A DNA stretch of 64,000 bases from an uncultured bacterium (GCA_963845185.1 CAWJRG010000010.1:263832-327831), one strand, 5' to 3'. Shown: positions 4,271 through 53,105, counted from the stretch's first letter. Translations and numbers: made by a program. Notes: generated from the letters alone by a model not told the origin.

Positions 4271-6088
4271 TTATTCAGGCTTACTATTATTTTTTGCAGC
4301 ATTTAAAAGCGTTTTTATTTCTGCGGTCTTTTTCTCGGATCTGGTCCATATATCCACTGCTTTTTTATATTCCCCCATGTCATAATATATGTTGCCCAAC
4401 AGATTGTAAAGCGCGCTGTAATTACCGTGCGCAGTTATAATTCTATTTAAGTATTCTATCGCTTGTTCCCTATTTTTATCCAAATACATTATCGCAAGCA
4501 TCAAGCAGGCTTTTTCTGACGGATAATCTGTTGTAAAGTCCTTAAGCTCGCTGAAAGCCTTTTTAAAATTAGCTTTGGTATAAAATTCAGAGTCATCTGC
4601 AGGTGTTAAATACTTAAAATATTTATCGATTTTTTGGGGGTTTACAAAAATAATAGCTTCATCGTCAAAATATACAGCTTTATAATTAAGTCCGGATAAC
4701 TTATCAATAACTGGTGCCCCATAGGAAAGTAAAAAACTGTTTATGTTGTTTTTTGCAATGAAATCCTTATAATTCCCTTGCGTGTAATATATATTAGAAT
4801 ATTCCTGAATTACTGTAAACAGCGCGTTAAGCCTGCCGTTTACCATTATTTTATATTCCGGGAAAAGCATATACTCAAAATATCCGCCCCATTCGTAATT
4901 TGAAAACAAATTTGGCGGTACTTTTGATTTCGTAATATATTTAAGCGCCTGCTCAGGATAAATACTTTTTGGAACTGCTGCTATTTTGAATGCCCCAAAA
5001 GCAAGCAGTAGCAAAGTCACGGCAATATAAATTTTATTGTTGAATGTAACAAGGTCTTTGTTTTCAGTCAACAAAACATCCTTCTTAATAGCCAAAAAGA
5101 TATAATAGGATAAAATTGGCAAGGATGTTATTATAAACAAGGGTATGTTTTTCCTGACTGCTAGACCGGCTGTCAGGAATAAAAGGATTATAACGCCGTC
5201 CTTTAGAAATACCGCGTTTCTCCTTATATCTGAGTCTTTCAAGTTGCGAAAAAATACCAGTATAACCGTTGCCGAATAAATAAAAAAAACTGAAAAATAT
5301 GCTGCGTTATCAATATTCGAAAAATCAAATCCAGTCTGCCATTCTTTTATATATTGTTTGATTCCGAAATCCTGCATGAAAAAAATTAAACTTTTCGGGC
5401 CCTCGGGGCTTATAAACGATGCGAGTATTACGCCGGCAAGTGAAATCAGTAATATTCTAAAATCGTAGGATTGTCTCTTTTCCTTTAACTTATATAAATT
5501 AACGCTGTAAAAAACACAATATATAAACATAACAATCGCGCCGATTATTTCTGTCGCGTGTATGTTCACCCATAAAACAGCTGCAACAGGAAGCGAATAG
5601 TATAATATTTTATGGCTTTTTACCGGCTCATGCTCAAGTACATATATGAAATACAGAATGAATAAAAAAGTGAAAAACTGGGGCCTTAAAACCAGGAAAG
5701 GCGACAGCAAATATACGGCAAGAAGCCAAAAAGGCAGTACCGGCTCAAGGTATTTGGCCTGCTGCCTCACTCGTATAACAAGAAAAAGCAGGCCAAAAAG
5801 TCCTGCTGCCATGAGTATTTTGAAATATAAAAGGTTGTTTATTCCAATAAAAATCGACAACAAATAAATAATAACGTCAAAAAGCCATTCATGCGAATAC
5901 CATTTTTGATTCGCAGCATAGGAAAAAGTATCATATTTCGGCAGGCCGTGAGCTTTTATTATTTCCCTGCCCGATGACATATGCCACCATGTGTCGCTGT
6001 CGAGAAAGTTGTTGTAAGAAATGGAAAAAAGGACAAATAAGGCGGCCAAAAGGAAAAAACCTTTTATTAGAGTGCTTTTTACGGCCAT
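4271..6088 (-). CDS. polytopic membrane protein with C-terminal TPR repeats (candidate GT-C-type glycosyltransferase)
   Basis: 605 aa with more than 10 hydrophobic segments. The N-terminal motif is DTWWHMSSGREI...HEWLFD. The C-terminal roughly 120 aa are TPR-like (AIEYLNRII...YYDMGEYKKAVDIW). Confidence 0.65.
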   Translation of the reverse strand: MAVKSTLIKGFFLLAALFVLFSISYNNFLDSDTWWHMSSGREIIKAHGLPKYDTFSYAANQKWYSHEWLFDVIIYLLSIFIGINNLLYFKILMAAGLFGLLFLVIRVRQQAKYLEPVLPFWLLAVYLLSPFLVLRPQFFTFLFILYFIYVLEHEPVKSHKILYYSLPVAAVLWVNIHATEIIGAIVMFIYCVFYSVNLYKLKEKRQSYDFRILLISLAGVILASFISPEGPKSLIFFMQDFGIKQYIKEWQTGFDFSNIDNAAYFSVFFIYSATVILVFFRNLKDSDIRRNAVFLKDGVIILLFLTAGLAVRKNIPLFIITSLPILSYYIFLAIKKDVLLTENKDLVTFNNKIYIAVTLLLLAFGAFKIAAVPKSIYPEQALKYITKSKVPPNLFSNYEWGGYFEYMLFPEYKIMVNGRLNALFTVIQEYSNIYYTQGNYKDFIAKNNINSFLLSYGAPVIDKLSGLNYKAVYFDDEAIIFVNPQKIDKYFKYLTPADDSEFYTKANFKKAFSELKDFTTDYPSEKACLMLAIMYLDKNREQAIEYLNRIITAHGNYSALYNLLGNIYYDMGEYKKAVDIWTRSEKKTAEIKTLLNAAKNNSKPE

Positions 6089-6612: not shown

Positions 6613-8061
6613 TCATTTTTTTTTCTTATATAAAATAATATCCTTTGTTTCGATTTGTTTGTCGTAAAAAGATCTGAACAATTGCGAAAATGCTTCTTCT
6701 TTTTCCTGCCGCGTAAGGACAAAAAAATCAGGCGGGTTATCCGCCATTTTCGCCCCAAACGTTTCCATGTCGTGCTGATAATACCCGAAAGCGTAAGCGT
6801 ATACAAACCTGGAAGGCGCTTTAATGCCTGTCAGGAAATATATTTCAGGCTCGTTTGGCCATACAAACAAAGTGGTTTTGTCTGTTTTTCCCCTGTTTAT
6901 TATTTCTGCCACGGCGCTGCTCTCATAAAACATTTCCTTGGTATATACACCGCTTTTATAAAATTCTATCAATTTTAAATAATTGATGAAAAAAAATATA
7001 TTAGCGATGAAAAAAACTGCTAATACCGTTAAAGCCGCCTTGTAATTAGTTTTTTTTGTAATCATTGTATAAAAATCCCTGAACATTATTGCCGCAAGGA
7101 TAGCAAGTGCAGGAATAAAAACCATGTAATAATGTGCGTATGTATCCTTAAGTATTCTTATTCCTATATACATTGTTATTACAGAGAAACAAATTAAAAA
7201 ATTGACCCTGTCTTTTGGAGCTTTGAAAAGCTTGTATGCCGACCATAAAAAGGCCATAAGAAGCAACGCATTCGAGTTTATTATTAACCTTAAAACCGCA
7301 AAAAGTTCGTCGTTGTTAGTTCCGGTTGCTTTTGCGCCTATATAAAAAAGGTTGTACATGATGTTACAGTCAATAAAATAATTCAATATACCGTTTTTTA
7401 CGCACCATATTAATACCAGCAGGGTTATTGTCAGGAACCCAGCTGTGTACCATGCTGCGTAACTGATTAGGTCTTTTTTATTTTTATAGTAAAAAATAAG
7501 GTAAATAACCGGCGCCACAAACACGAATAAAACCATGGTTTTTATGTACACGGCTATGCCTATGAAAATGCCTGAAATAAAAAAGTTGACATGCGCATAT
7601 TTTTTTTCAATATCCGTTAAAAACAGCAATGATAAAATCAGGGGTATCTGCAGAAAAACCTCGGTATTGGCTGTTTCGCCCCCCATCATATAATTATTCT
7701 GGTATACCATGTATATAAGCGCTGCGAGCAGAGATAACCACCTACCGCTTATATGCCGCATAAAAATAAAAACAAGTATCATGGTTACAATGACGCATAA
7801 AGTTGTAAATGTCCTTATGGCATATACGGAAATCCCAAAAAAATCAAAAGCGGTTTTGTAAATATAATAAATAAAGGGCGGTTTCTGGTCAAAAGTGTCC
7901 TTATAGGGCAGTTCGTTATGGTATATGTGCTGCGCCATGTAGGCGTATGTGCCCTCATCCCTGTCAAGCGGCATGCCGGTAAACGGCACTCTTATGGCAG
8001 CCATAATTATTATTAACAGCAGCAGCATGCAGATTTCCAGTATGGTTATTTTCTTTTCCAT
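6613..8061 (-). CDS. ArnT/PMT-like (GT39/GT83-type) membrane glycosyltransferase
   Basis: 482 aa and polytopic. The N-terminal motif LDRDEGTYAYMAQHI..LPYKDTFDQKPP is typical of this GT-C family. Confidence 0.7.
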   Translation of the reverse strand: MEKKITILEICMLLLLIIIMAAIRVPFTGMPLDRDEGTYAYMAQHIYHNELPYKDTFDQKPPFIYYIYKTAFDFFGISVYAIRTFTTLCVIVTMILVFIFMRHISGRWLSLLAALIYMVYQNNYMMGGETANTEVFLQIPLILSLLFLTDIEKKYAHVNFFISGIFIGIAVYIKTMVLFVFVAPVIYLIFYYKNKKDLISYAAWYTAGFLTITLLVLIWCVKNGILNYFIDCNIMYNLFYIGAKATGTNNDELFAVLRLIINSNALLLMAFLWSAYKLFKAPKDRVNFLICFSVITMYIGIRILKDTYAHYYMVFIPALAILAAIMFRDFYTMITKKTNYKAALTVLAVFFIANIFFFINYLKLIEFYKSGVYTKEMFYESSAVAEIINRGKTDKTTLFVWPNEPEIYFLTGIKAPSRFVYAYAFGYYQHDMETFGAKMADNPPDFFVLTRQEKEEAFSQLFRSFYDKQIETKDIILYKKKK

Positions 8062-10116: not shown

Positions 10117-10145
10117 ATTTTACTCAATTTTCCTACTTGTGTCAA
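10117..10145 (-). promoter_or_regulatory. sigma70-type promoter driving repeat copy C and the Memo-like operon
   Basis: Minus strand: TTGACA (10145..10140), a 17-nt spacer, then TAAAAT (10122..10117). It lies about 35 nt upstream of copy C. Confidence 0.5.
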
Positions 10146-20206: not shown

Positions 20207-20353
20207 TATTCTTTCTCCTTTTTTATTATTTATTTTCACATAATTATACATCATGTATAGTATTTTGTCAAATATCATTACCTTTTTATTTTTCGTAGGT
20301 TGACTTTTACTAAAATTTAAAATAAAATCTTTTTATTACGTTCCAGGAGGCAT

Positions 20354-28137: not shown

Positions 28138-28686
28138 TTAGTTATTTATCGCAAACCAGTATTCGGCCAGTTGTCTCTCGATTTTTTCATAGTCCCTGAA
28201 ATACTTCTTAATATCCCAAAAAAATTCCCTGTTATGCCTTCTGTGCCTGAAATGGTTCAGCTCGTGGCAGACAATATAGTCTATCAGCCTCTCCGGCAGC
28301 TTTGACAGCGCGCAGTTTATTGTGATATTGCCCCTGCTGCTCCAGCTTCCCCATTTCGACCGCATGTTCTTGAAAAAAACTCTTGACGCCTTAACGCCCA
28401 TTCTTTGTTCGTTTTTTAGGATGGATTTTTTTACTATCCTCTTAAATTCATTCATCGTCCTGATTATTGGCACCAGTCCAGCCGCATTCTGCTTTATCGC
28501 CTGTATCTCGTTTATTTTCCTGTAAATCCAGTTTTTATGTTTCTGTATTATCCTCTTTTCGTCCATATGCCTTCTCGGCGCTATCAGGACAAGCCTGCCT
28601 GTTTTAAGCTCTATCCTTGCGTGCTTTACGTCCCTGCGTTCGACCCGGTACGTTACATCCAGGTCATTTATCCGTATTTTTTCCAT
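28138..28686 (-). CDS. YgjP/DUF45-like HExxH metal-dependent hydrolase
   Basis: 182 aa with the motif CHELNHFRHRRH near the C-terminus. It overlaps the 3' end of hsdR by 23 nt. Confidence 0.8.
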   Translation of the reverse strand: MEKIRINDLDVTYRVERRDVKHARIELKTGRLVLIAPRRHMDEKRIIQKHKNWIYRKINEIQAIKQNAAGLVPIIRTMNEFKRIVKKSILKNEQRMGVKASRVFFKNMRSKWGSWSSRGNITINCALSKLPERLIDYIVCHELNHFRHRRHNREFFWDIKKYFRDYEKIERQLAEYWFAINN

Positions 28687-31600
28687 AATCCTGCGCCCCT
28701 ATAATATCGGAAACTATGCTGCCTGATATCCTGTCCAGCTCATCCGGGTTATATCCCTTTTTCCTGAATATTCTCCTGATGATTTGCGTGACTGCCTTGC
28801 CTATTTCGGGGTTGGATATGTACTCGAGCATGTACTCGCCCTCCTCCCTGATTTTTTCCTTCACCTGTTTCATGCATTCCACGGCGTCCCCATCGCTCAG
28901 TTTTTCCTTTTTCAGCCGCAGGAACATGACATACTCTATATTGTCCAGCCCCAGCTCTTTTTGTTTGTTTTCCACTGCTTCTTTATCGTCGAATATGGCG
29001 TTCCCGGCTTTTATTATTTCCATGTAGGTTTTCACATTGCTCTGCCATTCCTGTATGAGCCGCATTACCCTGTCGGCCAGCTCCTCATAAATAGGGTTCT
29101 TTGCCTTGTCTACCAGTACATACTTTCGCAGGGCAAATATTATGCTCGCCGCCTTTTCTTCTGTCGGGTCCGCTTTCGCGAGCAGTTGCCTCATCCTTGC
29201 CTCGTCATACCGTATGCCCGGAAGCTCTTTTAAGCCTTTTATCTCCGTGCCCTTGTAAATATTTTCCAGCGTCCTCTTGAAATACTTGCGTATATAATAA
29301 TCTTTTTCCGGCTCGTCGAAGTTTTTCTTGTAGTAATAATAAAACGCGGTCAGCCATTTATATTCCTTTAAGAATTTTATCTTGACTTCAGAGCTTCCGA
29401 GCAGCTCGTACAGCCGCCTTGCCTGCCTGTATTTCTCGTCGAATTCAGCCTGCCGCCTGTCTTCGGAACTTATGAATTTCAGGATAGAAGTCAAGTGCTG
29501 GACATCATAATTCTCAAAATCAACTTTTCCTCTCTCCAGCAGCTTTTTTAATCCTTGTATTGTATCGGCAAACTTATCCGCCATTTTATCAAAGTCATAC
29601 AATATGTTTTCCCTGTCTTTCTCCTCATACGCCTTAAAAGCCTTGTCTATGTCGTCGAGCACGCCCACATAATCTATTACCAGCCCTGCTTCTTTTTCCT
29701 CATAGCGCCTGTTTGTGCGCGCTATCGCCTGTAAAAGCCTGTAATTTTTCAGGGCTTTGTGCAGGTATACGGTCTGCAAAACAGGCGCGTCAAACCCTGT
29801 TATAAGCATTTCCGTTACTATCAAAATCTTCGGGCTTTTATCGGCGTTGTCCTTGAATTTGGGCGTTATTTTCTTTTTGATTTCAGAAATATCTTTTTCA
29901 TTATATTTTTCAGTTATCCTGCTGTACTGCGCGGCTATTTTTTGGTCTGCTTCCTTTTGACCCATTGACATGACTATTTCGGTTTCGTCTTCGTCAAAAT
30001 ACCTGTCCAGTTCTTCCTTGTACAGGCAGCATGCATGCCGGGACGCGGCTATCACGACTGCCTTGAATTTCCCGTCAAGGTTGGCTTTAAAATGCCCCGC
30101 GATATCTTTTGCTACTATCTTGATTATTTCAGGATTTTCAAGGACTACGTTTATTTTACTTAGGCGTTCCCTGACCCCTTTTTCCACGTCTTCTTTCATG
30201 GTCTCGTTTATTTCATCTATATCTTCCTGGTCGTAAAAGAACTTGATAAGGTCCCTGTCCACGTGCACTTCATCCGTCAATCTCGGCTGGTAGGCTATTT
30301 CAAGCGTGTACCCGTCCCTGACGGAATCTTCCATAAAATACCGGTCAAGGTAAAGTTTGTCGCCGTATTCAAATTCTTTATAAGTGTTCCTTTCCCTGTT
30401 TGCTATCGGCGTGCCTGTAAAAGCAAAAAGGTTTCCGCTTTTAAATATGCTTTTCATCTGCGCTGATAAAATCCCGTATTGCGACCTGTGCCCCTCGTCT
30501 ATCAGGCAAATGACGTTTTTCCTGCCTGCTATGGTTGACTCGCTGCTGCCCGAGGCTTTTATTTCCTCTTCTATTGCCTTCATCTCGCTTTCAAAATCCC
30601 GTAGCTGGCCCGGATTAAACTTATGGATGAGCGTGACAAATACGCCCCTTTTGCCCCTGTATCCGTCGTGTTTCAGGATTTTCCGCAAATCCTCAATGGA
30701 TGAAATCGGTTCAATGTCGGAGAACAAATCAAGATAACCGAACTCGTCGAATAACTGGGTCTCAAGCTCCTCCCTGTCCACAATAAAAAAAATGGACGGG
30801 TTTGCCGCTTCCCTCATCTGGAAAAGCTTATTCGCGGCAAATATCATGGTAAGCGTCTTTCCCGAACCCTGCCAGTGCCATATCAGGCCGCGGTCTTTTT
30901 CCTTTTTCCCGCTTATCCTGCCTGTCACCCTTTTTACAATCTTATCAGTTGCCCTGTACTGCATATAGCGGCATATTACTTTGGTTTTCCTGCCACGCTC
31001 TTCCCTGAAAAATAAATAATATTTTATAATATCGAGCAGCCTGGCAGGCTCAAGCATTTCAATTATGTCAAATAAATCTTTTGTATTCGTAGAGACAGGT
31101 TTCAAACCTGTCTCAGTTTTATCCTGTATTTCTTCAATGGATTTCCACTCGTACATCTGCGGCAATTCCCCGTTCCATGGGACTATCGGGAAATACTTTG
31201 ACACGACATCAGCGCCGACTCCTATCTGGACATATTTGAATAATTCAGGTATTTTCTTTTCGTATGTTTTTATGTCTGTCACGGCGTCCAGCCAGCTCTT
31301 CCTCGCGCTTTCCGGACTTTTCAACTCTATGTTTACGAGCGGTATACCGTTGATATACAGCATTATGTCGCTCCGGATTTCCCTGTCTCCAGCCCTGTAA
31401 ACCGGCTGGTTCGTGACAATATATTCATTGTTTTCAGTATTATTGAAATCAATGAAATTAAGGTCTTTTAATATTCTTTCTTTCTTATCCTCCACTCTTT
31501 GCCCGAATTTGATGTATTGCAGGGCATGTTTCATGCCTTGCTCGGTCGTAGGAAGCATTTTAAACTCATGAATCTTGCGCGTGATTTCCTCAGGGCTGAT

Positions 31601-31759
31601 GTTTGTGGATTTATTGATTCTTTCTATGGCGTTTTTAAGGCTGTTTTCCAGCAATACATCCCCAAGCGAGTTCCTCACCAGCCCCGCCCCGGGTATGTAT
31701 TTCCATCCTGCTGCCTTTAACCGCTCTATAAACTGTTGTTCAAGACTTTGTTCTGTCAT
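28664..31759 (-). CDS. hsdR: type I restriction enzyme R subunit
   Basis: 1031 aa with an N-terminal nuclease-like region, helicase motif I (WHWQGSGKTLTM) and motif II (IDEGHRSQYG). The remaining SF2 motifs and a helical C-terminus are present. Confidence 0.93.
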   Translation of the reverse strand: MTEQSLEQQFIERLKAAGWKYIPGAGLVRNSLGDVLLENSLKNAIERINKSTNISPEEITRKIHEFKMLPTTEQGMKHALQYIKFGQRVEDKKERILKDLNFIDFNNTENNEYIVTNQPVYRAGDREIRSDIMLYINGIPLVNIELKSPESARKSWLDAVTDIKTYEKKIPELFKYVQIGVGADVVSKYFPIVPWNGELPQMYEWKSIEEIQDKTETGLKPVSTNTKDLFDIIEMLEPARLLDIIKYYLFFREERGRKTKVICRYMQYRATDKIVKRVTGRISGKKEKDRGLIWHWQGSGKTLTMIFAANKLFQMREAANPSIFFIVDREELETQLFDEFGYLDLFSDIEPISSIEDLRKILKHDGYRGKRGVFVTLIHKFNPGQLRDFESEMKAIEEEIKASGSSESTIAGRKNVICLIDEGHRSQYGILSAQMKSIFKSGNLFAFTGTPIANRERNTYKEFEYGDKLYLDRYFMEDSVRDGYTLEIAYQPRLTDEVHVDRDLIKFFYDQEDIDEINETMKEDVEKGVRERLSKINVVLENPEIIKIVAKDIAGHFKANLDGKFKAVVIAASRHACCLYKEELDRYFDEDETEIVMSMGQKEADQKIAAQYSRITEKYNEKDISEIKKKITPKFKDNADKSPKILIVTEMLITGFDAPVLQTVYLHKALKNYRLLQAIARTNRRYEEKEAGLVIDYVGVLDDIDKAFKAYEEKDRENILYDFDKMADKFADTIQGLKKLLERGKVDFENYDVQHLTSILKFISSEDRRQAEFDEKYRQARRLYELLGSSEVKIKFLKEYKWLTAFYYYYKKNFDEPEKDYYIRKYFKRTLENIYKGTEIKGLKELPGIRYDEARMRQLLAKADPTEEKAASIIFALRKYVLVDKAKNPIYEELADRVMRLIQEWQSNVKTYMEIIKAGNAIFDDKEAVENKQKELGLDNIEYVMFLRLKKEKLSDGDAVECMKQVKEKIREEGEYMLEYISNPEIGKAVTQIIRRIFRKKGYNPDELDRISGSIVSDIIGAQDYGKNTDK

Positions 31760-31802
31760 TTACCTACCTCTACGTAAAAAATATGAAGTAAAATTATATA
31801 AT

Positions 31803-33323
31803 TTAATCTCGAAAGAATACAGCTTCGCTATATCTCTTTGAGTTTTTTACAATTTCATTTGCTATTCTTTTTAATTCGATTTCTTTTTGAACATCATTTT
31901 TCCAAGCACGAGTAAAACGTAATTTCCATTTTTTTATTTTATTTAATGTTATTATCTGGGAATTTAAATAACTAAATATATCTTTTGACTTTTTATTTTT
32001 CCAATCTAACAAACTTTTAATTTGAAATTCATTATCTAATTTTGATGAAATTTCATCTAATAAATCAAAATGCAATTTTTTAGCGGATTTACAAAGTACT
32101 TTGGGAGGTAATTCTTGAATTATTTCCGCATAAGAAATACTTGTTTTCCATAAATTTTCTAAAGGTTGATTGTTAATTCCCTCAATAAAAATAGCTTCTT
32201 TTGCGCCAAAGAAAAAATAAATTAATTGCCTGAAATTATAATAATCTTGGTCATTAGGGACATCCTTCATATTAAATCTAAAAATGTCATCAGTTTTTAT
32301 ATTTATTACATATAATTCCGTCTTCGTTTTTCTATCATGATCCTTACTATTAATTATTTTTTTTCGTAAAATTTCAGAAAATTCGATAGCACTTAATCTA
32401 TTATTCTTAGGTTTAACTAAATATAAAGCTATTGATTTCGTACCAATTTGCGGAATATTAGAAGCAAATATTCGATTTCCCAAAACAATTATAGGTAACT
32501 TTGGGAGGTAATTTTTTTCAATATCTTTTGGAATGTTTTTACCAATTATTAAAAATGCTCCTTTTACTTTATCAAAAGTACCAGCATCTCTAAAAATTTT
32601 CTTATCTATTTTTTCTTGAATTATTTCTCTTAAAACACTATTTAATTCTGCTTTTTTATTAATTTCTTTTTGAAAAAAATCATACATTTGTTTAGCATTT
32701 AACAAGCGAGCAATTTCAAATAGAATTTTTAATGTGTTTTTAAATCCTAATTCATTATTTAAATTTTCCAATTTATTTTTTTCATTTCTTAAATTATAAA
32801 CATTAGCCATAACTCTTTCATTTCTTGTTGTTTTCTGAAAACTATATTTATTTAATCTTGTTATTATAAAATTTTTTAAATCTTTTAGCGTTGGTTCATT
32901 ATTTAAATCATGCGGTTTTGCGTTTATATATATATTCAACAAGCATATAAATATAAGAGCGTTATTAAATGGTTCATCTGCTTTAATAAGATTTTTCTCA
33001 AATATTTTTTCAATGCAATCTTCTAAACTAAGTGGATAGTCATCCGTTGCTTCAATCTTTTTAATATTACCAATAAAGACCAATGCGTTATAAATCCTAT
33101 CTATTATTTTAGTATTCCAGTCTTTATTGAATTTTTTTATCTTATATTCATCAATTACTTCTTTTAAAGCAAGCCACCCAAATGAAAATAAATTAATTAT
33201 TAGTTTAATTATAAGGTTTTGATCTTTTAATGTGGTAAAAGTCAAAATTAACATTATTCCTATAATTAATAAAAACAAAATCATATTTTTTTTATAAGTT
33301 AAAATAATTTTTTCAAATGTCAT
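31803..33323 (-). CDS. hypothetical membrane-anchored protein embedded in the type I R-M operon
   Basis: 506 aa. It has two N-terminal hydrophobic segments (ILFLLIIGIMLILTF and LIINLFSFGWLAL). I recognise no other motif. It is very AT-rich, and its start overlaps the hsdS stop by 11 nt. Confidence 0.6.
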   Translation of the reverse strand: MTFEKIILTYKKNMILFLLIIGIMLILTFTTLKDQNLIIKLIINLFSFGWLALKEVIDEYKIKKFNKDWNTKIIDRIYNALVFIGNIKKIEATDDYPLSLEDCIEKIFEKNLIKADEPFNNALIFICLLNIYINAKPHDLNNEPTLKDLKNFIITRLNKYSFQKTTRNERVMANVYNLRNEKNKLENLNNELGFKNTLKILFEIARLLNAKQMYDFFQKEINKKAELNSVLREIIQEKIDKKIFRDAGTFDKVKGAFLIIGKNIPKDIEKNYLPKLPIIVLGNRIFASNIPQIGTKSIALYLVKPKNNRLSAIEFSEILRKKIINSKDHDRKTKTELYVINIKTDDIFRFNMKDVPNDQDYYNFRQLIYFFFGAKEAIFIEGINNQPLENLWKTSISYAEIIQELPPKVLCKSAKKLHFDLLDEISSKLDNEFQIKSLLDWKNKKSKDIFSYLNSQIITLNKIKKWKLRFTRAWKNDVQKEIELKRIANEIVKNSKRYSEAVFFRD

Positions 33324-34530
33324 TTTTAATACCCCTTTTAATCCTTTGTTTTCCTGTCAAAAGTACATTTATAAGCCCTTTTTTCAGAAGTTCAAATTTT
33401 CCTTTTCTATTTTCTTCGATATTTAATTGTTTATCAATATTTGAAATAATAGAAGCAATTTCACGTTGTTCAATTATAGACAATTTAACAATCTTAAAAT
33501 TAACAATGTCCCTTTGAAAAAGATGGGGAATACTACTGCCGGATATTTTTTCCTTTATTAAGCTTGTAAAATTATTTGATTGGAAATATTGGAATACAAA
33601 TTCAGCATCATATAATTTTTCATCAGTTCTTATAAGCATCATTGTTCCATTTATAGTTGCCTTATCAGGCAATTCATCAATATAAGCCACTCTTCCAATT
33701 GTTCCATCTTTACTTATGATAATATCTTTTTCTTTTAAAATAATTTCATGCGATTCTTCATATCTTTCAATTGAAATATGTTGGCATCTATTCCAGATTA
33801 CTTTTCCGTTTTCAATATGATTACCTGCTATAAGATAGGGCCCCGATTTAGTATATTCTTTTGAAGATAATGCTCTCCATCCAATTCTTGCTTTAATATA
33901 TGAAAAATCTCCTAGCCTAACCACCTCCCACTCCTCTGGTATCTCCCCAAGTTCGGTTTTTTTAAACTTCTTATGCCCTATGCCTCTTGTCAGCAGTTTC
34001 TGCATCATGCCTTTTTTCAGCCGCTCGGTCTTCTGTATCTTCTCCTCCGCCATCGAGATGGCGTCGTCAACAGTGGACAAGACTTTGGCGATTTTGTTTT
34101 GCTCAATGATAGGAGGCATAACAGTTTTTCTTCTATACACAATGTCTCTATTTAATCCCGGAATAGCAGAGGAAGTTTCCATTTTTGATAAATCAAGCTT
34201 GTTTAATAAATAATAAAAGTATTTTAAATCAATATCTTTTTGCTTAAATTTAATAAAATATGTTGTATCTATAGCCCAAAAATCAGTATTGCACAAATGA
34301 ATTGACCCAATAGACCCCTTTCTACCTACTAATATACCCGGCCCCTTAGCATTGTAGGAATCGTGATTGCCAACAAGTCCATTTGAACCATATACCGGAT
34401 ATTTTCCTCCATCCCGTTCATTCCTTTTTAAGGCAGAACCATATTCAAGTGTACAAATATCCCCAATTGATATAAGGTTCCACTCTTCCGGTATCTCGCC
34501 AAATTCTGTTTTTTTATAGCCGGATTTCAT
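33313..34530 (-). CDS. hsdS: type I restriction-modification specificity subunit
   Basis: 405 aa with two target-recognition halves. Each is introduced by TE(F/L)GEIPEEW and followed by a conserved helix: LKKGMMQKLLTRG and LKKGLINVLLTGK. Confidence 0.92.
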   Translation of the reverse strand: MKSGYKKTEFGEIPEEWNLISIGDICTLEYGSALKRNERDGGKYPVYGSNGLVGNHDSYNAKGPGILVGRKGSIGSIHLCNTDFWAIDTTYFIKFKQKDIDLKYFYYLLNKLDLSKMETSSAIPGLNRDIVYRRKTVMPPIIEQNKIAKVLSTVDDAISMAEEKIQKTERLKKGMMQKLLTRGIGHKKFKKTELGEIPEEWEVVRLGDFSYIKARIGWRALSSKEYTKSGPYLIAGNHIENGKVIWNRCQHISIERYEESHEIILKEKDIIISKDGTIGRVAYIDELPDKATINGTMMLIRTDEKLYDAEFVFQYFQSNNFTSLIKEKISGSSIPHLFQRDIVNFKIVKLSIIEQREIASIISNIDKQLNIEENRKGKFELLKKGLINVLLTGKQRIKRGIKNDI

Positions 34531-35471
34531 TGCTTCTCCTCCCCAGCTTCATCCATTAACAAAACAAGCGAACCTAAAATCATGTACGTTTCTATTACGC
34601 ATAAATTAATATCTGTTTCTTTAAGATCGTTATGCGTTCCTTTCGAAAGTATATTATGGAGAAAAATTACTCTACTATCTAAATCGGATACCCTTGCCAT
34701 TAATAATTTTGCTTTATCGTCTTTTGCTTTTTGATCAATAAATGCAATAATTCTATTCTTATATTTATCATCTGTTACATCAATTTCTGTCCCGTCATTA
34801 CGAACAAATTTTTCTTTTCTAGCAGGAAATACCACATTTGCAAAAGCTTTAATTATATTTCGACATGTTGATAAGGCCTGCGACCATTCTTCAGGATTTG
34901 TTGAAGGAAGTCTGTCATATACAGCAATAAATTTGTCTATAATATCCGGAGAAATTTCCTGAAGTTTCTTATTAACATCTTTTTGCATTTTGATAAATAT
35001 ATCTTCAAGTATTTTTCCAAATTTATATTTGTGATTTATCCTCACAACATAAATATAAATATGTGATCGTATTTTTGCTAATAATCCCTTATTTTTCTTA
35101 ATTCTTGCAGCAAGATGATTTCCCTTTGAATCCTTATATGAAATTTGATCTGTTTCTATTTCACTTTCTATTTCCGGCACCGAATCAGTCCAATATTGAT
35201 ATATTTCTTTTCCCGCATTATCTTTTGTCTTTATATACCTTCCTGACCATCCAGCAAATGCTTGTAATTTATCATCTTTTATATCGGTAACATTCTGTTC
35301 TTGATAACCCATAAGTTCTGCAGCAAACCATTTTTCCGCCTCTTTATCATTTGTTAATCTTGCCAATTTTTGACACTTAAATAGAATCTTCTCAAAAGCT
35401 ATTCTGTCCATTTCAAAATCTGAAATAATTTCTTCAGATAAATCTATTATGTTTTTATCTCGTTCGCTCAT
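34527..35471 (-). CDS. AbiTii-like / helical (DUF4145- or HEPN-like) protein embedded in the type I R-M operon
   Basis: 314 aa. The N-terminus ILFKCQKLARLTNDKEAEKWFAAELMGYQEQ resembles, from memory, the AbiTii N-terminal module (..KC..LA..L.N...W...EL.GY). The C-terminus is a helical region ending LHNILSKGTHND. It overlaps hsdS by 4 nt. Confidence 0.6.
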   Translation of the reverse strand: MSERDKNIIDLSEEIISDFEMDRIAFEKILFKCQKLARLTNDKEAEKWFAAELMGYQEQNVTDIKDDKLQAFAGWSGRYIKTKDNAGKEIYQYWTDSVPEIESEIETDQISYKDSKGNHLAARIKKNKGLLAKIRSHIYIYVVRINHKYKFGKILEDIFIKMQKDVNKKLQEISPDIIDKFIAVYDRLPSTNPEEWSQALSTCRNIIKAFANVVFPARKEKFVRNDGTEIDVTDDKYKNRIIAFIDQKAKDDKAKLLMARVSDLDSRVIFLHNILSKGTHNDLKETDINLCVIETYMILGSLVLLMDEAGEEKQ

Positions 35472-35485
35472 AAACTCACCTCACA

Positions 35486-37273
35486 TTATTTTATCTCATT
35501 TAAATATCCTTCTATTTTCTTTTCCTTTAAAGTCAGTTCTTTCTCCAGTCCTTTTATCTCTTTCCAGACCTTATCCGTATCAATATCCTCGATTTCCTCT
35601 TCTTTAGAGCAGTACATGGTTACATTAAGCGACCAGCCATTGTTTTCAATTTCCGATATACTCACAACACGGGAAACGCCTTTTTTGCCCCTGTAACCGT
35701 CGTTATTTATAAATTCCCCGTAATAACCTTTGATTTCTTCAATATTTTTATCAGCAATAATATTTAATTTCCTGACATCGGGATGTTTTTCAAATAATCC
35801 GGAAGCGTTAATAAACAAAACCTTATTTTTCATCTCTTCTTTACGTTTTTTGTTTATAATGATTACACCGCCCGGCGCGCCCGTGTTATAAAAAAGCTTT
35901 TCAGGCAGCAGCATGACGCATTCGATAAGCCCTTTTGTTAAAACCGCCTGCCTTATATTTCCTTCTTTCCCGCTTCGGAACATTGCGCCGTTATCTATCA
36001 CTATACCCGCCCTTCCTTTTTTATCGTCAAGGCTTGCGATTACATGCTGTATCCATGCCCAGTCAGCGGACTGGTTGGGCGTAAAACCGTAGGTAAACCT
36101 TTCTTTTACAAAATTTCCTTTTTTAAGGTTTTCTTCGGGATACCCGTCCTGGTTCCACGGCGGGTTCACAAGGACAATGTCGAATGTTTTTAGTTTTCCT
36201 TTGTCCTCGAACTTCGGATATTTAAGGCTGTCGCTTAATTTCAAAACATCCTGCTTTATGCCGTGAATGTACAGGTTCATCTGCGCGAGCGCGACTGACT
36301 GGGCGTTTGCCTCCTCACCGTACAGGGAAAGGGTCTTTGCTTTTCCTGGCCCTTCCTTTTCAGTCACGTATTTATATGCCTGCAACAGCATATTTGCCGC
36401 GCCGCAGGCCGGGTCATAAACATTCTCGCCTGATTTTGGTTTTGTTATTTCCACAAGAAGCCTTATCACTTCTTTTGGCGTGTACACCTCGCCTTCCTTT
36501 GCCTTTTGCGGCGCGAAATACCTGATTATCCATTCATAAGAGTCTCCAAGCACGTCGTCGGAAACGTTTGAAAGCCGTTTTTCGCTGAACAGCTCGACAA
36601 GCTGCCTTAACAGCTCGGAATTTTCCTTGTTCCCGGAAAACTGGATAAAGGAAGTCTGTGATACTATTTCTTTTATCTTAGGGTTATGGTCGCCGATCTC
36701 CTTCAATATTTCCGACAACCCTTCGGGCAAATGGGACACATCGTTTCTTATGTTGTCCCAGAAATTCATATTGACACCCAGGTATTTGTCGGGCACGATA
36801 AAGTCATGATACGCTTCGTTCATGGCTTCTTTCTTTGCCTGGTTCTCCGAATACCCGTCTGCTTTTGCTTTTTCATATTCGTCTTCAAATTCCTTCTGCC
36901 ACTTATCGCTTATCCTTTTTAAAAACAAAAGCACGAGAATAAACTTATAATCAACCCTTGTGCGTATAAGGTCCGCCGCGCGTTTTAAAATCTTTTCTAT
37001 GTCATCCCTTGTCAATTCCTTGCTTTCGGAAAGCATTGGTTTCACCCCGTCGCCGCATTCCAGGAGCCTGTATATTTTTCTTCTGGCATTTTCCGGGTCT
37101 TTCACCACCTCAAGGCACTTATCCTTGCTGATGGAGGAAAGAATTGTCAATACCTGCTTTTCTTCGTCTCCATATGTGTCTTTAAGAATCCTGGCGGCAT
37201 TCTCAAACCTGAACTTTCCTTCTCCCAGTTTATCCTTTAATATCTGGTATCTCTTTCTAACCCATTTATCCAT
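35486..37273 (-). CDS. hsdM: type I restriction-modification N6-adenine DNA methyltransferase subunit
   Basis: 595 aa with SAM motif I (VYDPACGAANML), motif IV (VLVNPPWNQ) and an N-terminal HsdM_N-like helical domain. Confidence 0.93.
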   Translation of the reverse strand: MDKWVRKRYQILKDKLGEGKFRFENAARILKDTYGDEEKQVLTILSSISKDKCLEVVKDPENARRKIYRLLECGDGVKPMLSESKELTRDDIEKILKRAADLIRTRVDYKFILVLLFLKRISDKWQKEFEDEYEKAKADGYSENQAKKEAMNEAYHDFIVPDKYLGVNMNFWDNIRNDVSHLPEGLSEILKEIGDHNPKIKEIVSQTSFIQFSGNKENSELLRQLVELFSEKRLSNVSDDVLGDSYEWIIRYFAPQKAKEGEVYTPKEVIRLLVEITKPKSGENVYDPACGAANMLLQAYKYVTEKEGPGKAKTLSLYGEEANAQSVALAQMNLYIHGIKQDVLKLSDSLKYPKFEDKGKLKTFDIVLVNPPWNQDGYPEENLKKGNFVKERFTYGFTPNQSADWAWIQHVIASLDDKKGRAGIVIDNGAMFRSGKEGNIRQAVLTKGLIECVMLLPEKLFYNTGAPGGVIIINKKRKEEMKNKVLFINASGLFEKHPDVRKLNIIADKNIEEIKGYYGEFINNDGYRGKKGVSRVVSISEIENNGWSLNVTMYCSKEEEIEDIDTDKVWKEIKGLEKELTLKEKKIEGYLNEIK

Positions 37274-37357
37274 GCTTTCCTCCTGATATACAAGTAATCA
37301 ACCAAATAGGTTGTATATTCCCGAAACTCAAAAAAAAAGACCTTTTTACTTATTCTA

Positions 37358-37386
37358 ATTATAACGGCTGGATGCAAAAAAGTCAA
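37358..37386 (-). promoter_or_regulatory. near-consensus sigma70 promoter of the R-M operon
   Basis: Minus strand: TTGACT (37386..37381), a 17-nt spacer, then TATAAT (37363..37358). It lies about 85 nt upstream of the hsdM ATG. Confidence 0.6.
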
Positions 37387-52968: not shown

Positions 52969-53105
52969 TGCCGCCTCCTGAAATTAGAATCAATTTTCAA
53001 GTGTAATTATATTCCCTGTTTACGGCTTTGTCAATAACGGCTACCTTCAAAAACCTCTTTCCTTCCCGCGTTTTTATCGTATGCAACCCTTCGTACATCT
53101 TTTTC

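Follow-up and report, generated by a model that had tools for sequence, protein, structure and literature searches.

A type I restriction-modification operon of an uncultured bacterium as a probable mosaic with two embedded cargo genes

The six-gene type I restriction-modification (R-M) operon located on the minus strand at positions 28138-37386 of a 64,000-nucleotide DNA stretch from an uncultured bacterium (GCA_963845185.1 CAWJRG010000010.1:263832-327831; the whole stretch is hereafter called the window) is probably a mosaic in which independent modules are embedded between the hsd genes, a pattern that is already known. The backbone of such a mosaic would be made up of hsdM, hsdS, hsdR and a gene for a YgjP-like zincin, compositionally at home and lying between housekeeping genes, while two AT-rich segments carrying the cargo genes orf314 and orf506 would be acquisitions, for which recombination between related type I operons, with conserved hsd sequence serving as the arms, is the likeliest route. 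An earlier note on the window had read the six genes as a candidate composite defence system with a gene set that might not have been described before. The genes and their identities, coordinates, gaps and overlaps were recovered as described there, judging by the open reading frames (ORFs), the family matches and the coordinates, but the single composite was not upheld, the orf314 family being mostly solitary, the cargo foreign to the backbone and the slots that hold it promiscuous. The features of the locus are as follows:

hsdM, 35486-37273, minus strand: 595 aa, type I N6-adenine DNA methyltransferase, assigned by its ORF and family matches
orf314, 34527-35471, minus strand: 314 aa, AbiTii N-terminal domain and c2405-type (HEPN-like) C-terminal domain, cargo of the slot between hsdM and hsdS
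hsdS, 33313-34530, minus strand: 405 aa, specificity subunit with two target recognition domains (TRDs)
orf506, 31803-33323, minus strand: 506 aa, near-orphan with one or two N-terminal transmembrane helices, cargo of the slot between hsdS and hsdR
hsdR, 28664-31759, minus strand: 1031 aa, restriction subunit
YgjP-like/DUF45 zincin gene, 28138-28686, minus strand: 182 aa, PF01863 match and HELNH motif
Sigma-70-type promoter TTGACT-17-TATAAT, 37358-37386, minus strand: 84 nt upstream of the hsdM ATG
AT-rich patch A, 34171-35833, minus strand: the last ~115 hsdM codons, orf314 and hsdS TRD1
AT-rich patch B, 31803-33930, minus strand: hsdS TRD2, the C-terminal conserved region of hsdS and orf506

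The mosaic structure is seen in the GC content at third codon positions (GC3), for which the host baseline is 0.43-0.53. Residues 1-480 of hsdM (0.45-0.65) and hsdR together with the zincin gene (0.40-0.70) are host-like, whereas the GC3 of hsdM falls after about residue 480, orf314 has values of 0.10-0.34, and patch B shows a GC content of 21-26% and a GC3 of 0.07-0.23. The hsdS gene itself is composed of alternating parts, with values of 0.17-0.33 for residues 1-120, 0.45-0.62 for the central conserved region (residues 121-200) and 0.15-0.23 for residues 201-405, so that each of the AT-rich TRDs directly adjoins a cargo gene that is itself AT-rich, TRD1 adjoining orf314 and TRD2 adjoining orf506. 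The identity of HsdM to its closest relative, encoded by the related operon L018, drops from 72-92% over residues 101-500 to 54% over residues 501-550, where the AT-rich patch begins. Patches A and B probably represent two horizontally acquired segments, each comprising one TRD and one cargo gene, which suggests that cargo might hitch-hike with the TRDs of HsdS; the contrast between the host-like backbone and the AT-rich TRD-plus-cargo patches suggests a concrete route for cargo movement between operons. A transposon-style insertion was considered and rejected, as no flanking direct or inverted repeats were found.

There is a 43-nt direct repeat in the locus with copies at 30642-30684 (in hsdR) and 35676-35718 (in the 3' part of hsdM), which are 77% identical and differ at a single position within a core of 22 nt. 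Read on the coding strand, each copy gives DGYRGK(R/K)GV, a motif which the HsdM protein of L018 does not have, and the hsdM copy is located inside the GC3-depressed stretch corresponding to residues 481-595. The repeat may be a micro-conversion or recombination footprint.

Related operons hold other genes at the same junctions. In L018, the hsdM gene of which is 76% identical to that of the window, the next gene codes for a YhcG/DUF1016 nuclease and overlaps hsdM by 4 nt. In L019 (2538-7917), with an hsdM identity of 49%, four genes are found between hsdM and hsdS, coding for a DUF6036/AbiEii-like nucleotidyltransferase, a 456-aa protein, a Schlafen AlbA_2/HATPase_c_4/Fic-like_C ATPase and a 651-aa protein (34% GC). 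The slot between hsdS and hsdR is occupied by a GHKL ATPase gene in Salinibacter and by a DUF3644 HEPN gene in L013. Co-occurrence of orf314 and orf506 was never encountered elsewhere among the inspected loci. As judged from these gene orders, both internal junctions are promiscuous cargo slots. The Salinibacter gene, located on Salinibacter ruber plasmid pSR56 (L027, 4213-5655) and annotated as coding for an "ATP-binding protein", combines an N-terminal GHKL ATPase domain with a C-terminal HELAH zincin-like motif, and a further, separate SprT-family zincin gene follows hsdR in this operon.

The three hsd genes all look intact from their translations. HsdM matches PF02384 N6_Mtase (5e-98), PF12161 HsdM_N (7e-13) and the PADLOC profile MTase_I (2e-84), and contains motif I DPACGAANML and motif IV NPPW, as expected of the gamma class. 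HsdS matches PF01420 Methylase_S in two stretches (1.7e-40), corresponding to its two TRDs, as well as PADLOC Specificity_I (8e-89). HsdR scores 643.9 bits against TIGR00348 with a cut-off of 284.55 and matches PADLOC REase_I (4e-109); it consists of HSDR_N, SWI2_SNF2 and T1R_D3-like domains in which the PD-(D/E)xK motif (D...ELK), the Walker A motif GSGKT and the DEGH box can be read. An HsdM2S complex would methylate the host's own sites, and HsdR2M2S would translocate and cut unmodified incoming DNA.

The product of orf314 is predicted to be an abortive-infection toxin of the described AbiTii/c2405 kind. Its residues 11-108 match the AbiTii domain PF18864 (7e-11, 43.1 bits against a cut-off of 27.6), and the PADLOC AbiTii profile is matched at 2.3e-14, in agreement with the earlier note, where one of the inserts had been called Abi-like. 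The family includes 34 full-length relatives with identities of 27-46%; the AbiTii domain was matched in all 34, and they share a conserved C-terminal domain with the motifs CRN, DDKYKNR and SKGTH, for which a weak match to Pfam pP_pnuc_1 was obtained in 20 members. The histidine of SKGTH (H280 in orf314) is near-invariant, and there is no arginine 4-6 residues upstream of it, which matches the published description of the "c2405" HEPN family as having a "conserved H but lacks R", with members of this family being fused to an AbiTii N-terminal domain and sometimes carrying a helix-hairpin-helix (HhH) tail (Anantharaman et al. 2013, PMC3710099).

The orf314 protein also aligns over its full length with C_RS11400 of E. 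coli CFT073 (BLASTP 1e-23 over 319 aa, hhalign 99.7%). The latter is encoded seven genes after tcpC, which we take to be c2398, has an HHH_3 tail and is probably c2405. All invariant and near-invariant residues of the family are kept in orf314, while about 45 residues of the linker joining the AbiTii domain to the long central helix, present in most relatives, have been lost in-frame. The AlphaFold2 (AF2) model of the protein is confident, with a predicted local distance difference test (pLDDT) value of 89.5, and its C-terminal part is all-helical. No experimental test of any AbiTii/c2405 family member was found in the literature, and the compact 314-aa protein would be a convenient assay subject for the family.

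The genomic neighbourhoods of orf314 relatives were inspected at 17 loci, including 13 from metagenomes or genomes of many phyla, three from plasmids and one from E. coli CFT073. A type I R-M system is located within 10 kb in two of the 13 metagenome/genome loci, L005 and L013, which is about 10-20 times the rough background of 0.5-2% (binomial P 0.002-0.03), and in neither the three plasmid loci nor the CFT073 locus. The gene order in L005 is hsdR-x-hsdM-hsdS-AbiTii, with an 11-nt gap before the AbiTii gene, while in L013 the type I operon lies ~3 kb from the orf314 homologue, with a Fic/DOC gene and an uncharacterised gene in between. The relatives are thus solitary in 15 of the 17 loci, and no phage copies of the family were found. 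The neighbourhoods fit a defence-island gene and not an obligate R-M partner. A lack of co-occurrence of the two inserts with R-M genes in other genomes had been named in the earlier note as refuting its reading. Co-occurrence was seen for the orf314 family at 2 of the 17 loci; no R-M genes accompany the relatives of orf506 on their short contigs, and the two inserts do not travel together. This scarcity of co-occurrence weakens the idea of an obligate composite.

Two of these loci have features of their own. The L013 contig (1-10951), from a metagenome-assembled genome, carries hsdM-hsdS-DUF3644(HEPN)-hsdR followed by a 376-aa gene, the Fic/DOC gene and the orf314 homologue, and by its gene content it is a compact defence island, its HEPN gene occupying the hsdS-hsdR slot that is filled by orf506 in the window. 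In CFT073 (L030, 17764-23745), the c2405 homologue is located in the tcpC island beside genes for TIR-domain and macro-domain proteins, a defence- or conflict-type neighbourhood.

A layered but independent defence role is plausible for orf314 on the grounds of its domains and neighbourhoods. It would be an autonomous single-gene abortive-infection module, the AbiTii N-terminal domain of which might sense a phage component and restrain the HEPN-like C-terminal domain. Upon infection the C-terminal domain would turn toxic, probably as an RNase, and halt the cell, so that phages escaping restriction would meet a further layer of defence. Co-transcription with the hsd genes would then ensure co-expression and co-inheritance, with no obligate physical partnership being required, and orf506 would be an independent passenger.

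The six genes are tightly packed, with a gap of 14 nt between hsdM and orf314, an overlap of 4 nt between orf314 and hsdS, an overlap of 11 nt between hsdS and orf506, a gap of 43 nt between orf506 and hsdR, and an overlap of 23 nt between hsdR and the zincin gene, according to the coordinates. A Shine-Dalgarno (SD)-like purine run precedes each of them, all six ORFs are far beyond chance length for their composition (for orf506, log10 P of no stop is -24), and no convincing minus-strand internal terminator was found in the operon. Such packing bears on an integrated composite, in which the Hsd complex would keep orf314, orf506 or both latent until its disabling by a phage anti-restriction protein sets them off, i.e. 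a PrrC-like guard with orf506 as a membrane effector. The presence of PrrC within EcoprrI is a precedent for it (PMC3874165), and the embedding of both genes behind a single promoter, with overlaps of 4 and 11 nt, would suit it, as would the orf314 relative directly after hsdS in L005 and the 4-nt overlap of an orf506 relative (P0037, described below) by a GHKL-ATPase/nuclease-like gene of a class known from R-M neighbourhoods. We nevertheless regard the integrated composite as unlikely, since the orf314 relatives are mostly solitary whereas nearly all PrrC genes are embedded in type I R-M systems, and orf314 possesses neither an ATPase nor any other PrrC-like sensor domain; no ATPase domain was found in either orf314 or orf506 with Pfam, PADLOC and NCBIfam. 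The lack of any second locus with both inserts, the unrelated cargo in the slots of the sister operons and the cargo composition foreign to the backbone speak against it as well.

The only new piece of the locus is orf506. It is an intact 506-codon ORF with an SD-like site, a GC content of 22.7% and a GC3 of 0.15. The N-terminal hydrophobic helix of its product is strong (Kyte-Doolittle values of up to 2.75 for 19-residue windows starting at residues 5-21) and the second one is weaker (1.47, window starts 35-39); beyond the N-terminus there are helical, alpha/beta and helical regions. No match was found in Pfam, PADLOC, NCBIfam or PHROGs, and orf506 and its relatives P0037 and P0038 hit 0 families each in PADLOC-DB 2.0.0. 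The description of this insert in the earlier note as membrane-anchored and of unknown fold agrees with the N-terminal hydropathy and with the lack of family or fold matches. Of the checks proposed there, the PADLOC search assigned orf314 to AbiTii and gave no model for orf506, and the Foldseek search was not productive for either insert, with no structural match for the orf314 model and an orf506 model that was too poor to use; this AF2 model was built from three sequences only (pLDDT 46), and the list of hits obtained with it was discarded. Weak Pfam matches of orf506 to NAM, Peptidase_C12 and LA_0991 were likewise dismissed as noise, since they are below the cut-offs and the protein is rich in K, I, L and N.

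Two relatives of orf506 were recovered when 1.84 billion representatives were scanned exhaustively with HMMER, namely P0038 (506 aa, homologous over the full length, 2e-4) and P0037 (478 aa, 5e-5), which are mutually homologous at 2e-41 and are the only two among ~15 billion proteins overall. When 5.8 billion proteins were searched by word index, both the single sequence and a three-sequence profile recovered the query alone, and nothing was found among IMG/VR contigs, in plasmids and phages by tblastn or in PDB sequences by profile. The length and several blocks, such as GA[FY]L[IV]xGxx[IL]PK, Y[LV][VI]K and DWKN, which contain no recognised signature, are conserved at identities of 21-26%. 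N-terminal hydrophobic helices are present in orf506 and P0038 and absent from P0037. A sub-threshold match to DUF4231, presumably a SLATT-type domain, was observed in P0038 only (E 0.056). P0037 (on contig L008) is overlapped by 4 nt by an upstream gene (22-1377) with weak GHKL (HATPase_c_3) and NucS_C-like matches, the N-terminus of which is cut by the contig end, and P0038 is preceded by a gene for an 8xMP membrane protein. No R-M or AbiTii genes were found near the two relatives on their contigs, which are as short as 2.8 and 5.1 kb. A second sample (L020) contains an orf506-hsdR junction identical to that of the window.

Our best guess, made with low confidence, is that orf506 is a membrane-anchored defence-associated sensor or effector. 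It might instead play no part in defence and be a hitch-hiker with TRD2, such as a mobile-element remnant, a regulator or localiser of the R-M system or a selfish passenger, which we consider possible though rather doubtful. The failure to match PADLOC, Pfam, NCBIfam, PHROGs and PDB sequences or folds would be in line with a passenger of this kind, as would the different context of each of the three family members and the fact that, of the genes embedded in type I R-M operons, over half have no assigned role. An ORF that has stayed intact in DNA of 23% GC and carries an SD-like site, together with a length and blocks conserved at so low an identity, points the other way, and so do the translational coupling of one relative to a GHKL/nuclease-like protein and published tests in which embedded genes usually turned out to be defence genes. 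A bolder suggestion, which we put forward as a somewhat improbable one, is that orf506 and its two relatives form a new and very rare defence-associated family partnering DNA-targeting NTPase/nuclease machines (R-M here, the GHKL-ATPase/nuclease-like protein in L008), possibly as a membrane-anchored sensor or effector, and that embedded cargo spreads by hitch-hiking with TRDs in TRD-swapping recombination. In any case orf506 is a cheap candidate for guilt-by-embedding studies, as it is intact and its slot is filled elsewhere by HEPN or GHKL defence genes.

The inserts could also be decaying, non-functional passengers in an operon working as a canonical three-gene type I system. The ~45 residues missing from orf314 and the extreme AT content and unadapted codon usage of the cargo would be consistent with decay, which is nevertheless very improbable given that the inserts have no frameshifts or stops, that the shortened orf314 retains all invariant family residues and yields a confident AF2 model, and that the orf506-hsdR junction is identical in the second sample.

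Several points weigh against the mosaic of independent modules as set out above. Its recombination history has been deduced from the composition of a single locus, and AT-richness is common in TRDs anyway. The tight translational coupling provided by overlaps of 4 and 11 nt would also be expected if the cargo depended functionally on the R-M proteins. The orf314 model gave no match at E<0.06 against PDB and BFVD in the Foldseek search, whether to a solved HEPN structure or to any other, the assignment of the c2405 domain to HEPN goes back to a published profile analysis, and C_RS11400 is equated with c2405 from the gene order after tcpC and the HhH tail. Finally, the absence of R-M genes beside the orf506 relatives is weak evidence on contigs of 5.1 and 2.8 kb.

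The gene trailing hsdR codes for a zincin matching PF01863 (1e-28, 101.1 bits, cut-off 26), the HELNH motif of which spans residues 141-145. No literature stating a link between DUF45/YgjP proteins and hsdR was found, and therefore the link was tested directly on a small sample of four plasmid-borne type I operons encoding HsdR homologues. In three of them, from Geobacillus, the archaeon Haloferax and Salinibacter, hsdR is adjoined by a gene for a "SprT family zinc-dependent metalloprotease" homologous to the window zincin (phmmer 6e-19, 3e-12 and 7e-17, respectively); the fourth, from a Vibrio plasmid, has no zincin gene beside hsdR. The tblastn search of plasmids with the zincin itself returned only a distant copy outside R-M, in Lachnospira. 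The zincin is, as far as these neighbourhoods indicate, a routine companion of this HsdR clade, and the HExxH gene is not a special addition to the operon.

The hsdM promoter, located in the 197-nt gap after lipA, scores 11/12 and ranks first among the 31 promoter-like sites of the region, confirming the single near-consensus promoter proposed earlier. TTGACA-N17-TATAAT with no more than one mismatch occurs four times in the window against 0.82 expected, each time on the minus (coding) strand; the other three near-perfect sites are at 10117-10145, 20243-20271 and 53006-53034. Nearly all genes in the window are on this strand. The operon is flanked upstream by lipA, a lipoate ligase-like gene and gcvPB and downstream by genes for an FMN reductase and typA. 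As these are housekeeping genes, the operon is a single insertion in a core region and not part of a defence island. No tRNA or Rfam matches were found in the window. Farther away, a minus-strand ORF of 605 aa at 4271-6088, located in a lower-GC stretch (~36%), has no Pfam match at 1e-5, and next to it, at 6613-8061, is a gene for a PMT_2-type glycosyltransferase.

The hiding of defence modules among the genes of R-M operons, to which the earlier note had drawn attention, is well documented: HEPN genes have been described in R-M operons (PMC3710099), PrrC in the type I system EcoprrI (PMC3874165), TgvAB embedded in a type I R-M system of Vibrio cholerae VPI-2 (PMC11411939), and guilt-by-embedding has been applied systematically to type I R-M operons by Payne et al. 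(2024, bioRxiv 10.1101/2024.01.29.577857). Embedded genes are usually independent defence modules, and many embedded families have no assigned function (bioRxiv 10.1101/2024.01.29.577857; PMC11411939). Since defence genes embedded in type I R-M operons are already established, the locus adds an instance and not a principle.

The window operon resembles the operons of Payne et al. and that of TgvAB in having accessory genes between the hsd genes, co-oriented with them and probably in one transcription unit, but its cargo consists of an AbiTii/c2405 protein and a member of a three-member orphan family, and two slots are filled at once. With PrrC/RloC (EcoprrI) it shares the placement of a gene for a predicted HEPN-type toxin within a type I operon and the logic of a suicide layer behind restriction, whereas the ABC-ATPase sensor, the canonical Rx4-6H motif and the near-exclusive R-M embedding of PrrC have no counterpart in orf314. 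There is also a likeness to the proteins combining an AbiTii N-terminal domain with c2405, with which orf314 shares this domain, the conserved His without the canonical Arg and full-length homology, differing in the absence of the HhH tail of c2405 and of the ~45 linker residues. The AbiTii domain is also common to orf314 and lactococcal AbiT, which is encoded by two genes, AbiTi and AbiTii; however, orf314 has no AbiTi partner, for which the 14-nt gap to hsdM and the 4-nt overlap with hsdS leave no room (only AbiTii was matched when the six operon proteins were compared with the AbiT components in PADLOC), and lactococcal AbiTii does not have the HEPN-like C-terminal domain that orf314 possesses. 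The trailing zincin, finally, is similar to the hsdR-linked YgjP/DUF45 ("SprT family") zincins, HExxH homologues encoded directly beside hsdR on bacterial and archaeal plasmids, and differs from them in its length of 182 aa compared with 219-242 aa and in the 23-nt overlap of its gene with hsdR.

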